Origin: Vulcanimicrobiales bacterium | GTDB lineage: Bacteria > Vulcanimicrobiota > Vulcanimicrobiia > Vulcanimicrobiales > Vulcanimicrobiaceae | Assembly (NCBI GenBank): GCA_038215615.1 | Contig: JBBQQR010000026.1 | Span: forward strand, 1-27,871 | Length of the DNA stretch: 27,871 nucleotides | Direction: 5' to 3' | In this document: positions 21,001-27,000 of the stretch, piece after piece | Numbering within the stretch: the first letter of the stretch is position 1 | Layout: the number at the start of each line of letters is the position of its first letter | Program-made: the position numbers

Positions 21001-24000
21001 TCCCAGCGGCATCGACTTAGCGCATTTCGGATCGGGGGAAATGCGCGCCGGTCTGCGCCGGGCACTCGGCACCAAAGACGGCGAGAAGTTGCTGCTTTTC
21101 GTCGGCCGTTTGGGACGCGAAAAAAACATCGAACTGCTGCTGGAGGCGCTCACGTTGACGCAAGTGCCCGCGCGGCTGGCAATTGCGGGCGACGGTCCCG
21201 AACGGGAAACGCTTGAGCTGCGCGCGTCTGAACTCGGCGTACAAGATCGCGTCCGGTTTTTGGGATCGCTCGAACGCTCCGAACTGCCCGATTATTACGC
21301 CAGCGCCAACGCCTTCGTTTTTCCGAGCGTAACCGAAACTCAAGGCCTCGTCTTAGTGGAAGCGATGGCTGCCGGCTCCGCCGTGATCGCGGCCGATGCC
21401 GCGGTCGTACGCGAAGTCCTCGCCGGGGAAGGCCGGCTCGTCCCCCTTTCGGCGCAGGCGTTTGCCGCCCAAATCGACACCCTGCCGGCGACCCCCGATC
21501 AGGGGGAGTCGGCCCGTAGCCGCGCCGCTGCGGAGAGGTTTGGTATCGAGAGCCAGGCCCGCCGAGTGGCCGGGCTTTACGAGGCGCTGAGGGCTCGCGA
21601 GGTGCAAGCCGCCGCCCCTTGACTCGAACATATGTTCGGGGTACGATAGTGACATGAAAGCGGTAGATGCGTCCGTCGGGTATGCGGCGGATGACGCCGG
21701 AAACGGCGTCGCTTACGTGCGAATGAATCTACGCGAAGGCGGTCCGCGGGTGTTGCGGGTTCCCTTCAGAGTGCAGCGTCAGCCGGCATTGTCGGGCCGC
21801 GAGGTCGGATATGCCGCGCTGACGGCAGTCTGCGCGGCGGCTCGACGCCGCGCGATCGATCACGTCCGGTTTTCGATCGACGATCAGAGCTTAATCGCCG
21901 AGCTGCGCCGGCACGAAACCGTCCCGCCTCCGCTCGCGATGCCGTACGTGCGCCTAGGCTGCGCGCTCAATCAATTCCGGAGGTACGAAATCGCCGATTT
22001 GCCGCCAGGCGACGCCGATCTCAGCGCGCGTGCCCGCTCGGAAACGGCGATGCACGTCGCGGCGTGACGTGGCGCGCTTGCGCCGTTTACGCGTTCACGA
22101 ACTTCCCGCCGGCACGGTCGATTTGGCGAAAGCTTTGCTTGGATGCGTGCTGATCCGCGAGTCTCCGCGGGGCCGCAGCGCCGGGCGAATCGTGGAAACC
22201 GAAGCTTACGTGATCGGCGATCCGGCTTCGCATGCATATCGCGGAAAAAGCCGCCGCAATGCTTCCATGTTCTTGATGCCGCATCGCGCCTACGTCTATA
22301 AGATCTATGGCACGTCGTTTTGCGTCAACGTCACGAGCGAACGCGAAAACGAGGGCGCCGCGGTCTTGGTCCGCGCGCTCGAGCCGATCGAGGGACTTGA
22401 GCTTATGGAAGAGCGCCGCCGAACTGCGCGCGCGATCGATCTCTGCCGCGGGCCCGGGCGCCTCTGTCAGGCTTTGGCAATCGACGGAGAGCTGGATAGG
22501 GTCGATCTCTTGCGCGGCCGGAAGCTTTGGCTTGCCGCACCGTCGGGCGATCCACGGCCAATCGGGACGAGTCGAAGGATCGGAATCAGCAAAGCCTCGC
22601 GACGCAGGCTGCGCTTTTTCGAACGCGGCAGCCCATTTGTGTCGGGACCCAAACACTTGTCGTCCTGACCGCCCTGTGCTATAGTTTGGGCGTCGCGACG
22701 TGCGGTTAAACCCTCCGCGACGCATACGTTTCCCCCGCTCACGCCCTACGAGTCCGGCAGCCTCGCCCGATCGTTTCGCATATGCGGCGTGCGCGACTCT
22801 ACGAGAGAGAAAATCCACTGCAATTCGAACATCGTCCCAACAATGACGGCCGCCCTGGTGGCGGAAACCGCCGCCGCCGCTCACGACGTCACCGGCAATT
22901 TGGCAACAATCCCGCTCCTCATTTCGCCGAACATTTCCCGGTGGTCGCCGAGCAGGCGCTTCCGCAGCTGCTCACGGTCGAAGAGCTTTCGGAGAAATCC
23001 AAAGCCGACCTGAACACCCTCGCCAAAGAATTCGATATCGAGTCGCCGCTCAAGCTCAAAAAAGAAGAGCTGATCCCGAAGATCATGGAGATTCAAGCCC
23101 AGCGCACGGGTCTCGAAGCCGCCAACGGCGTGCTCGACATCTTGCCGGAAGGCTACGGATTTTTGCGGCGCGACGGCTACGTGATCGGGCCCGAAGACGT
23201 CTACGTTAGCCAAACGCAGATTCGCCGCTTCGAACTTCGCCGCGGCGACTTAGTAGACGGGCAAGTTCGTCGTCCCAAGGAAGGCGAGAAATACTTCGGC
23301 CTCATCCGCGTCGATCGCATCAACGGGCTTCTGCCCGATGAAATTCGCGGCCGCCGCCTTTACGAAAAAGGCACGCCGATCTATCCCAACGAGCGGTTCC
23401 GCCTGGAAGTGCGCTCGACCCAACTCTCCACGCGTGTGATCGATCTGTTCTGTCCGATCGGCAAAGGCCAGCGCGCATTGATCGTCTCTCCGCCTAAAGC
23501 CGGTAAGACGACGCTGCTCAAAAATATTGCCAACTCTATTTCGATCAACCACCCCGAAGCGCACATCATCGCGTTGCTCGTCGACGAGCGGCCCGAAGAA
23601 GTCACGGACATGCAGCGCACGATCGACGGCGAAGTCGTCGCTTCGACGTTTGACGAGCATCCCGAGAATCACACCGCCGTCGCCGAACTAACCATGGAGC
23701 GCGCTAAGCGCCTCGTTGAAATCGGCAAAGACGTCGTGATTTTACTCGACTCGATCACGCGCCTCGCGCGTGCCTGGAACCAAGTCATTCCGACCTCGGG
23801 CCGCACGCTGTCGGGCGGTCTCGACACCGCGTCGCTCCACAAACCCAAACGCTTTTTTGGCGCCGCGCGCAAAATCGAAGAAGGCGGTTCGCTCACGATT
23901 ATCGCCACAGCGCTGGTCGAGACGGGCTCCAAGATGGACGACGTCATCTTCGAAGAGTTCAAAGGTACCGGCAACATGGAACTCAACCTGACGCGCAAAC

Positions 24001-27000
24001 TGGCGGAGTCGCGCATCTTTCCGGCGATCGACATCAAACGCTCGGGCACGCGTCACGAAGAGTTGCTGCTCAGCGAAGACGAGATGCGCAAAATCTGGAT
24101 GCTGCGCCGCGCTACGAGCGTGCTCAACAGCGGCGACATCACCGAGATCATCCTCGACAAGATGGCGCAAACGCGCACAAACGACGAGTTCTTGCAGACC
24201 GTCACCAAGGAAGCGCTCTCGCTGTCGCGCGGATATAACGAAGAGGGCAACGGGAAGTACTGACCTCCGCAGCACAAATAGCCGGAATCGAAGACGCTAG
24301 AAAACCGCCGTCCATGGCGGTTTTCTGCTTCGCTGCCGGCTGTTTATGCCGCTGAAGGCCAGTCCTGCCCGCAAGAAAAAAGACAAGGCCCGGATCGAAC
24401 TATGGAATCTCATTGATGCGGCTGCAGAAATACTTAGCGCACGCCGGCGTCGCGTCGCGGCGCGCGGCCGAAGAACTGATTGTCGCGGGCAAAGTTCGCG
24501 TCAACGGTAAGATCGTGCGCGAGCTCGGAACCAGCGTCGATGAAGACGCCACTGTCAAAGTTGACGGCAAGAGCGTCGCGCTTCCAAAGGCGCATACGTA
24601 TATCGTTTTGAACAAACCGTTCGGCGTCGTGACGACGATGCGCGATCCGGAAGGGCGCCGCACCATCAGCGACTTGTTGCCAAAAGGTCTGCCGCGGGTG
24701 GTCCCGGTCGGGCGATTGGACTACGATACCGCCGGCGTCTTGTTGCTGACAAATGACGGTGAGCTGGCGCACGTGCTGACGCACCCGCGTTTCGGCGTCG
24801 AAAAAACGTACCGTGCCGTGGTGAAGGGACAGCTCTCGAAGGATGAGATCGCACGTCTGCAACGCGGAATGCATTTGGAGGAGTTTCGCGCGTCGGGTGC
24901 GCGCGTGAAAGTGGTTGCATCTCCGTCCGACCGCACGGTGCTGGATATTACGATCCACGAAGGCCGTAACCGGCAAGTCCGCCGCATGCTCGAGGCGGTC
25001 GGCCATCCTGTGCGCGAGCTGCGCCGATTGCAGTTCGGGCCGATTTCGCTCGGGACGCTCCCGGCAGGCCGCAGCCGGCCCGTGACCGCGCGGGAACTCG
25101 CGCGTTTGCGCGAACTGCTCCCGTAGCCATGGAGAGGCTTGCCGCGCTTCCGAATACCTACAAACTCGTGCGGCGCGATGCGCGCGCGAGCCGGACCATC
25201 GTTCAACTGCCCAACGGCGCGAGCTTCGGCGGCGAGGTGCTGGCGATCTGCGCCGGACCGTGCAGCGTCGAGTCGCGGGAACAGATCGAGGCAACCGCGC
25301 AAGCGGTGGCCGCAAGCGGCGCCAACGTGCTGCGCGGCGGGGCGTACAAACCGCGGACCTCGCCTTACGCATTTCAGGGTTTGGGCGCCGAAGGACTGAA
25401 GCTGCTGCGCGATGCGGCCGACCGGTTCGGCATGTCGGTCGTGACCGAAGTTCTCGATCCGCGCGACGTTGCGCTCGTTGCGCAACACGCCGACATGCTG
25501 CAAATAGGCACGCGGAACATGCAGAACTTTACGTTGTTGCGCGAAGTCGGAGACGCTCGCAAGCCGGTCTTGCTCAAGCGCGGACTCTCGGCGACGATCG
25601 AAGAGTGGCTGCTGGCCGCTGAATATTTGCTCGTCGCAGGCAATGCCGAGGTTGTCCTGTGCGAACGGGGGGTGCGCTCGTTCGATTCGGCGACGCGCAA
25701 TCTCTTAGATCTGGCGGCTGTTCCGCTCGTCCACTCGCTTTCGCACTTGCCGGTCATCATCGATCCGTCTCACGGCACGGGCCTCGCCAAGCTGGTAGCG
25801 CCGATGGCGGCCGCTGGGCTCGCCGCCGGAGCCGACGGCTTGCTGGTCGAGGTCCATCCCGACCCGCCGGCGGCAGCGTCGGACGGGCCGCAGTCGCTCA
25901 CGTTCGAGCAGTTCGAAACGTTGATGGGAAGGCTGCATGCGGTCGCCGCCGCGGCGGGACGGCAGCTGCCGTCCGCGACGTTAGCCGCTTGACCGCCTAG
26001 GAGGGGAGCGTCGGCGTCCCGCCGCATGGCAAGCGACGAACGTCGTTTGAGAAACGTTTATCCGCGGTATCAACGCTACGCTCCGCGGCCTTCATTATAA
26101 ACACGCACGAGCACGAGGTTTAATAGACGCATGATCCTGATCACCCGCATGGCAGCGGCCGCAGCGGCCGTTTTTGGTGCTGTCGCATTTGCCTCGCCGG
26201 CCAACGCGCAGAACTACAGCAACCAGTTTTCACAGGCGAAATTAATCCACCGCGCCGACACGTCCGTCCCGATCGCCGGGTCAGGCACTGTGGTGATACA
26301 GGTTCAAGTGAATGCCGACGGCAGCCACAAGGTCACGCGTATCATTCGCTCGAGCAATTACCTCGACAACGCTGCGGCGATCGACATCGCGAAAAACTCC
26401 ACCTATCGTCCGCAGCACCGCGGGAAGACCCCGGTCACCGGTTTTTATGACTTCACGATCGCCTTCCACGGCAAGAGCGTCGCTTCCAACGGCGTGGTCG
26501 CATCCGGCACGACGGCGCAGGTGGACGGGCTCATTCATGCCGGCAAGTACGACGCCGCCAAAGCGATCGTTCTTCGGGCGCTCGCGTCCAGGCCCAACGA
26601 TGCAACGTTAAATCAACAGCTCGCAACGGCCGACTATTTCCAGAAAGACTATGCGGGCGCGGCGGCAGCATTCGAAAAAGTGTCGAACATTTCCAAGCCG
26701 TTCATTCCGGTCGCCGCGCAATCGTATGCGATGGCAGCCGTGAAACTCGCACCGACCGACAGCACAACGGCCGTTTCATTCGCGCAAAAAGCCGTGACGC
26801 TGGCACCGGGGGACGGGACGTACTACATTCTGGGTTCGGCGCAAGTGCAAGCCGGCGACGCGGCATCGGCAATCGCGAACCTGCAAAAAGCGCGTTCGCT
26901 CGCGATGGCGGACCCAAAGATGGACAAGAACGCTAAGGTCAACATCGATGCGGCGCTGCTGCAGGCATACATTCAAACCGGGGACACCGCATCGGCCAAG

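Follow-up and report, generated by a model that had tools for sequence, protein, structure and literature searches.

The rho gene of Vulcanimicrobiales almost certainly starts at a CUG codon, found at position 22818 of the window (the whole stretch of DNA that was analysed, 27,871 nucleotides), behind a folded leader RNA, and both codon and leader persist even in lineages whose Rho no longer has its motor, a pattern that suggests a novel means of limiting the amount of Rho. If this is true, an entire order of soil bacteria would use a non-AUG start on a core transcription factor together with an undescribed leader RNA, and gene callers would misplace the N-terminus of Rho and could drop an RNA-binding arm. 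Non-AUG starts, rho autoregulation and motor-dead Rho proteins each have precedents, their combination being apparently unreported: a literature search, judged mostly from listings, turned up no publication that deals with Rho in this phylum or with a rho gene started by a codon other than AUG.

The first codon of rho and the N-terminal extension

The gene product in the window is Rho, the transcription termination factor, by family score (641 bits against TIGR00767, curated cut-off 509) and by its motifs, i.e. K230 (Walker A Lys), E257 (catalytic Glu), R258 (Arg valve), D311 (Walker B Asp), K382 (R-loop Lys) and R412 (Arg finger). The coding features and their immediate neighbours are:

22818..22820, + strand: predicted CUG start codon of rho, from comparison across rho loci
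22818..24263, + strand: rho coding sequence, 481 amino acids, all ATPase motifs intact in the window genome
22818..22964, + strand: Arg-rich N-terminal extension of about 49 codons, predicted disordered (from dN/dS, Arg run and pLDDT)
22782..22784, + strand: in-frame ATG, 12 codons upstream of the CUG and inside the P2 region of the leader; not conserved, probably not the start
24307..24331, + strand: hairpin followed by a T run, downstream of rho and resembling an intrinsic terminator, a consensus match only (four found, 2.9 expected in shuffles)

The CTG at 22818-22820, which the earlier note had proposed as the start in place of the called GTG, shares its frame with that GTG (22941, 41 codons downstream) and with the stop ending at 24263, in a reading frame open from 22710. 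A rho match is present in 134/151 genomes of the order, and the first codon was compared across 130 loci from 40 genera (110 of the 134 rho-matching genomes plus 20 further loci). It was placed in 128 of them, six by eye, and is CTG in 121 of the 130, TTG in four, ATT, ATC and GTG in one each, ATG in none and unplaced in two; within this sample, two loci of genus g29 have neither the extension nor a clear start, and three (L036, L054 and L056) carry a frameshift. CTG makes up 100% of the Leu codons in the start column, with no synonymous Leu change, as compared with at most 83% for any one codon at 24 other near-invariant Leu columns of these genes and 30% of all their Leu codons. Swaps at this column are confined to start-capable codons, and the spacer between the Shine-Dalgarno (SD) sequence and the start measures 6-9 nt in 121/128 loci. 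The start position is supported by comparison and, judged by its sequence, rho carries the marks of a regulatory near-cognate start, namely a conserved codon, a suitable SD distance and no usable canonical start.

The CUG extends to both families, as had been claimed for the order as a whole, with the exception of genus g24, where TTG or GTG is the first codon in 5/5 loci. The earlier account of a CUG start, an Arg-rich extension and canonical starts in other classes holds on a sixfold larger sample, and the sister order has GTG at the matching place in 6/6. To gauge how common CUG is in this lineage, 421 ortholog pairs of genomes G000 and G011 were compared: canonical starts were aligned in 111 and near-cognate codons in 36, two of the latter being CTG on both sides and lacking an SD; the screen failed to flag rho itself.

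From the CUG, the extension measures 40-59 residues in 126 loci, and an Arg run is found in 126/126. Purifying selection (dN/dS 0.04-0.26) indicates, by comparison among loci, that the extension is coding, and the proposal that the CUG start adds an Arg-rich N-terminus is upheld. In a relative's structure model residues 1-53 have pLDDT below 50. Given the CUG start, Rho here has the initial region, longer than 25 residues and preceding the N-terminal domain, that defines Type 2a Rho (Moreira et al. 2024, PMC11347177), and resembles that type in its disordered, Arg-rich character, differing in that the CUG hides it from gene callers. In the available parts of that paper, the main text is silent on start codons and on Eremiobacter, and the supplement on start codons and on Vulcanimicrobi.

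Canonical codons do occur nearby. The in-frame stop reported just upstream in several loci lies within 12 codons of the first codon in 28/128, while in 52/128 an open canonical codon is found at most 20 codons upstream, and in only two of these does it beat the CTG in anti-SD pairing. Among 123 near-cognate loci, 46 are free of ATG, GTG and TTG both across the preceding 45 codons (or as far as the stop) and onward through the Arg run. That the CUG is an internal Leu codon and the true start an ATG or GTG upstream or downstream is highly improbable: the ATG at 22782, which the earlier note does not mention, is in frame and would give the length of a 493-residue protein in a public collection, the 52 loci just mentioned agree with it and many loci have an ATG near codon 46-50, but against this stand the 28 upstream stops, 18 loci in which the first canonical codon comes at codon 62 or later, within the folded domain (as the earlier note had indicated for some), the protein-level selection on the extension and the lack of synonymous changes at the CTG. 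A conserved short isoform from the ATG near codon 46-50 was considered and rejected, that ATG not being conserved and g2 having Leu there. Counted against the CUG and a throttle built on it are the Caulobacter dnaA gene, whose predicted CUG start with an SD turned out to be unused in vivo (PMC8443254), and a mycobacterial selection in which CTG was a poor initiator (PMC4633059).

The leader RNA

Upstream of the CUG, the following elements were delineated:

22657..22685, + strand: putative sigma-70-type promoter, TTGTCG-17-TATAGT with extended -10 TG (one found, 0.5 expected)
22692..22721, + strand: P1, optional 5' hairpin of the leader, from folding; GTCGCG-like arm in 84/122 leaders
22722..22735, + strand: C/U-rich stretch, mostly unpaired, possible Rho primary-site ligand; a loose pattern, in 103/122 leaders
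22736..22795, + strand: P2, a long stem with interruptions, its base formed by pairing of 22736-22745 and 22786-22795, from covariation
22756..22767, + strand: apical hairpin GGC-AGCCUC-GCC with a nearly invariant loop, in 108/128 loci; single copy in G000
22797..22809, + strand: weak SD GAGAGAG, part of a short CUCU/AGAG hairpin; -6.5 kcal/mol when paired with the 16S tail

Transcription in the window probably starts near 22692, and 122/128 loci have a TGn -10 box upstream of the start that leaves a leader of 89-170 nt. The stem is supported by comparison: seven of nine basal P2 pairs vary on both sides among 39 sequences, counts which are inflated by kinship, and the covariation score was reached by 0/500 shuffles, the structure having been drawn from the same sequences. 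At the apical hairpin, the closing C-G pair has become U-A in 3/4 g31 loci. In G000 the leader model finds a single site, the one at rho. No leader or riboswitch model of Rfam 15 matched, the sole hit being a 15-bit CRISPR repeat (E 7.9) on the opposite strand.

Conservation of the hairpin across the order, as earlier proposed, holds for family f1; in f2 it does not, the leader model giving one weak match (10.7 bits) in five. The loop is also absent from g24, and g29 lacks extension, leader and CTG alike. As the CUG persists without this loop in f2 (5/5), g15 (2/2), g17, g26 and g91, the two are not strictly coupled.

The purine-rich SD described earlier is present, GAGAGAG lying 8 nt upstream of the window CTG and pairing with the tip of the 16S rRNA, but its pairing is weak, with a median of -6.5 kcal/mol across 122 loci. 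An altered anti-SD as the cause of the GAGAG was rejected, the 16S tail being canonical in 5/5 genomes. Inspection gave no sign of a loop-SD pseudoknot, since in the ten loci whose loop reads AGCCCC the SD has not changed to match; nor do counts of the loop motif in five genomes, overall no higher than in a reversed control, speak for a regulon site.

Lineages with a broken motor or without rho

The evidence bearing most on mechanism, absent from the earlier note, comes from one subclade in which rho is either lost or kept with broken ATPase motifs (24/24 in genera g2, g31 and g29). Among proteins with a readable ATPase domain, the Walker A Lys is lost in 18/18 from g2, 4/4 from g31 and 2/2 from g29; g2 additionally lacks the Walker B Asp and the Arg finger (18/18), and the catalytic Glu is absent from g31 and g29 (6/6). 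Three motor-dead proteins that were tested score below the TIGR00767 cut-off and above that of NF006886, and would therefore still be named Rho.

Comparison shows that two of these genera retain start codon and leader, the CUG being found in 23/23 loci (g2 19/19, g31 4/4) and the hairpin in 22/23 (g2 19/19, g31 3/4). Named records of the motor-dead form, many from the same species as the g2 and g31 sample, have CTG in 39/40 and the hairpin in 38/39. The RNA-binding domain stays constrained in g2 and g31 (dN/dS 0.12 and 0.03). Because CUG and hairpin persist in two motor-dead genera, the leader could work without Rho-dependent termination. In rho-less loci the leader motif is gone in 5/5, bar one 10.5-bit match. 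A Rho-like match in genome G294, at 35% identity and on a short contig, may stem from contamination.

Control of rho expression and its precedents

In the mechanism that we propose, a promoter belonging to rho itself would yield an mRNA with a leader of about 126 nt, and ribosomes starting at the CUG would make a Rho with a disordered Arg-rich N-terminal arm. The CUG, the weak SD and the adjoining stem would keep initiation low, as a translational throttle, while the conserved loop and the C/U-rich stretch would most likely serve as a binding site for the RNA-binding part of Rho, whose OB domain and/or Arg-rich arm would feed back on the rho mRNA; in motor-intact lineages an mRNA so sparsely loaded with ribosomes would also be open to Rho-dependent attenuation. 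A throttle with feedback by motor-independent Rho binding, to which we give slightly under an even chance on the genomic comparisons, is supported by the absence of ATG, the Leu-codon test, the GTG of the sister order, the dN/dS of the extension and the covariation of the stem. The motor would not be needed, since the Walker A Lys is lost in g2, g31 and g29 and yet CUG and hairpin are kept in g2 and g31. Counting against the throttle are the SD hairpin, possible in 85/128 loci and missing in 43/128, the weak folding z-scores of the whole leader (averaging -1.0 for clade A and -0.7 for clade B) and the modest excess of C over G (0.35 versus 0.27). In a stronger form, possible but doubtful, Rho would recognise a specific sequence in its own mRNA and repress translation, the Arg-rich arm or OB domain binding the AGCCUC hairpin and shutting the CUG start. 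In one subclade this RNA-binding role would have outlived termination: selection there would maintain motor-dead Rho as a regulator that binds RNA and is subject to the same feedback, next to sister genera that have no rho.

Autoregulation of rho through its leader is known in Escherichia coli, Bacillus subtilis, Salmonella and Caulobacter (PMC6582626; bioRxiv 2023.12.01.569620), which share with the present case an own promoter and a C-rich leader sequence before rho. Classical attenuation, with the leader as a rut site, the CUG merely uncoupling translation, Rho terminating its own transcript and the motor-dead signals as relics, is unlikely here, despite these four precedents, the C/U-rich stretch in most leaders and the intact motifs of clade A Rho (98/99). 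A relic should have decayed, whereas the 12-nt hairpin is identical in 19/19 g2 genomes at a synonymous divergence of about 0.5, and g31 has a compensated pair; moreover, the leader is short and mostly paired. Set beside a rut site, which is C-rich, G-poor and unstructured, it gives a mixed picture, having a short C/U-rich stretch within a largely paired RNA. It is shorter than in the known systems (the B. subtilis promoter lies 293-320 bp upstream), from which it differs further in its conserved stem and loop, CUG start, lack of an Rfam match and retention where motor motifs are broken.

Rather unlikely, too, is a fixed throttle or outside sensor, in which the CUG sets a low level that tracks the activity of IF3 or the state of translation, and the partner of the loop is another protein or a small RNA instead of Rho. 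IF3-type control appears to be present, as the likely start codon of infC in G000 is ATA; in Salmonella the rho leader is acted on by a small RNA, and the CUG survives without the loop in several genera; against it, the motif is not enriched elsewhere in the five genomes and vanishes together with rho.

Non-canonical start codons serve as throttles in several genes, pcnB among them. Others are infC (AUU/AUA) and Staphylococcus aureus ccpN and cvfC1, reporters in S. aureus giving about 10% of AUG output from non-canonical starts (PMC13009471). The throttle proposed for rho resembles those of infC, ccpN and cvfC1 in the conserved near-cognate start on a regulator and the swaps among near-cognate codons, and differs in being on rho, in its CUG, in a weak rather than extended strong SD and in being order-wide; it is known from sequence.

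The phylum includes a cultured member (PMC9758169), so that tests are possible, and the subclade offers a natural series (intact, divergent, motor-dead and deleted rho) for roles of Rho beyond termination and for its loss. Rho-like proteins of Baekduia soli and Conexibacter woesei (PMC11347177, supplement) are likewise full-length, with the RNA-binding domain kept and the catalytic Glu and Q/R loops lost. The motor-dead Rho described here would be of independent origin and differs from them in forming a graded series within one subclade, from intact motifs through three kinds of breakage to loss of the gene, with CUG and leader retained.

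The start codon of rho

In the window, a CTG at 22818 is in frame with rho, 41 codons upstream of the GTG at 22941 and with GAGAGAG 8 nt on its 5′ side. The region upstream contains (forward-strand coordinates):

22657-22685, sigma-70-type promoter

which would give a leader of ~126 nt. The product is a Rho of 481 aa (TIGR00767, 641 bits) with all six catalytic residues intact, of type 2a by the available text of PMC11347177. However, an ATG at 22782, absent from the account of the earlier note, is also in frame, and a 493-aa entry in the public protein collection matches the length expected from it, so that this rival start needed testing in relatives.

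A Rho match was found in 134 of the 151 genomes of the order; loci from 110 of these, and 20 added for further genera and divergent forms, gave 130 loci from 40 genera (125 in family f1, five in f2). The genome tallies take in unpublished genomes (G099 and G129 for 134/151; G268, G277, G278, G279 and G306 for 30/234 below), of which the sequence-level results are independent. The order name is that of the earlier note, with which named records are consistent at the level of phylum and family. Single frameshifts in the rho of three near-complete assemblies (L036, L054, L056) are probably sequencing errors.

The first codon is CTG in 121 loci, TTG in four, and ATT, ATC and GTG in one each, but never ATG. 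The TTG and GTG starts all belong to genus g24, where they lie about two codons shorter, with a longer spacer. The remaining two loci, from g29 (L045, L046), lack the Arg-rich N-terminal extension and run for 33 and 47 codons before a canonical one appears; an ATT common to both follows a purine run and may be their start. Arm and leader are both lost in g29. Wherever the start column encodes Leu the codon is CTG, whereas 24 other near-invariant Leu columns reach at most 83% of one codon and CTG makes up 30% overall; an internal Leu would drift in codon use, which argues against this being one. An upstream start is contradicted by in-frame stops within 12 codons in 28/128 loci, where the earlier note had reported several, and by poorer Shine-Dalgarno (SD) sequences, an open canonical codon lying within 20 codons upstream in 52/128 loci with a better SD in only two of these. 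A downstream start is contradicted by 18 loci whose first canonical codon comes at codon 62 or beyond, and by dN/dS of 0.04-0.26 for the extension in eight genera (pairwise counts among kin, descriptive only), with synonymous change resembling that of the rest of the gene. The proposal that rho starts at CUG stands as very probable from these comparisons, and that the CUG is not a start is very improbable.

The purine-rich SD described earlier is present, but its predicted strength is weak: GAGAGAG pairs with the extreme 3′ end of 16S rRNA, whose tail is canonical in 5/5 cases, at -6.5 kcal/mol both in the window and at the median. In 85/128 loci the SD can form part of a 4-bp hairpin.

In the sister order, rho opens with GTG then CAA or GAA in 6/6 loci (L111-L116), beginning a longer arm of 121-287 residues with RE/RD repeats, for which condensate formation is a candidate role. 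The expectation of ATG or GTG in other classes was borne out: an ATG sits at the first domain or close to it in 14/14 loci and in 18/20 further ones (of the two exceptions, one is cut by a contig end and one was not aligned). In other-class loci L230-L247, insertions of 150-390 residues separate the first domain from the RNA-binding domain.

Loss of rho and predicted motor-dead Rho

An RpoB tree of 54 genomes (FastTree, single marker; six left out, with rpoB partial or missing) divides f1 in two. Clade A, with 23 rows at support 99, has a normal Rho throughout; of the 28 rows of clade B, at support 89, 17 have no rho found, one is doubtful, three have a divergent Rho and seven have broken motifs. 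This loss or breakage is a point absent from the earlier note. The RNA-binding family was not found in 30/234 family genomes, a few of them probably through incompleteness, and is missing in two single-contig genomes. In 4/5 rho-less loci (L216-L220) mpg lies directly 5′ of the pseudouridine synthase gene, which indicates that rho was deleted from its place. An ORF of 137 aa without an NCBIfam match (window 21654-22067, + strand) adjoins mpg even in all five (36-47% identical).

The Walker A Lys is lost in g2 (18/18 proteins), g31 (4/4) and g29 (2/2), together with the Walker B Asp and Arg finger in g2 and the catalytic Glu in g31 and g29, and from these motifs we infer that activity has been lost. 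The motifs are retained in g26, g97 and g101, where Arg takes the place of the R-loop Lys. The broken-motif proteins cluster on the Rho tree and are the sole Rho of their genomes at the search threshold used. That they are products of decaying pseudogenes is ruled out by open reading frames, by dN/dS (0.22-0.29 in the dead ATPase domain versus 0.02-0.04 in clade A, and 0.03-0.12 in the RNA-binding domain) and by the Rho fold predicted beyond residue 53 for one of them. Full-length motor-dead loci under purifying selection are L031-L047, L140-L142, L149-L154 and L250-L289. Since these proteins pass one NCBIfam Rho model, they would be labelled ordinary Rho; named records include Candidatus Elarobacter MAGs. 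The available text of PMC11347177 gives a precedent for full-length motor-dead Rho in Baekduia and Conexibacter. A degenerate Rho-like gene on a short contig (G294:C39, L224; 35% identical) is possibly contamination.

The leader and the control of rho

The leader comprises, 5′ to 3′, an optional hairpin, a short C/U-rich stretch and a long interrupted stem, capped by GGC-AGCCUC-GCC or a near variant in 108/128 loci, the closing pair being compensated in g31. Among 39 aligned leaders, 7/9 basal stem pairs vary on both sides, with slid controls much lower, a figure raised by kinship and by the structure being fitted to the same sequences; folding z-scores over the whole leader are modest, and an Rfam search returned no matching family. 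A model built on clade A picks up the leaders of g2, g31, g97 and g101, 1/5 in g24, 1/5 (weakly) in f2 and 0/6 in the sister order. The leader said to be kept across the order is kept in f1 but not in f2. Searched against whole genomes, the model finds a single site each in G000, the window's own genome, and G035; it missed the g2 leader in G001, with only 150 candidates scored, and blanks there are weak. Family f2 has a different, longer, conserved leader, unmatched by the f1 model (L048-L052, ~170 nt before the CTG).

The CUG, weak SD and adjoining stem would together make initiation of rho inefficient; such codons in S. aureus give ~10% of AUG output, according to the accessible part of PMC13009471. 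The simplest account may be that feedback is retained but shifted to RNA binding, through that part of Rho on which selection still acts. This feedback by binding is tentatively preferred, at somewhat less than even odds. Losses of CUG and loop partly coincide (g24, g29), but f2, g15, g17, g26 and g91 have the CUG without the loop, against tight coupling. Classical attenuation, in which Rho-dependent termination acts at rho's own leader, has parallels in several bacteria (PMC6582626 and bioRxiv 2023.12.01.569620, in the text available), but alone is insufficient to explain why g2 and g31 keep the CUG in 23/23 and the hairpin in 22/23 loci, and is rather unlikely. A fixed throttle, or an outside factor or partner, is unlikely too, and slightly more so.

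In a literature search lying mostly outside subscription papers, nothing came up on a rho start other than AUG, on this leader or on the Rho of the phylum. The observation on rho is real, and regulators with near-cognate starts are already known. In infC of the window's own genome (L221; G000:C16 near 5730, minus strand), an apparent ATA start follows AGGAG, the usual IF3 pattern.
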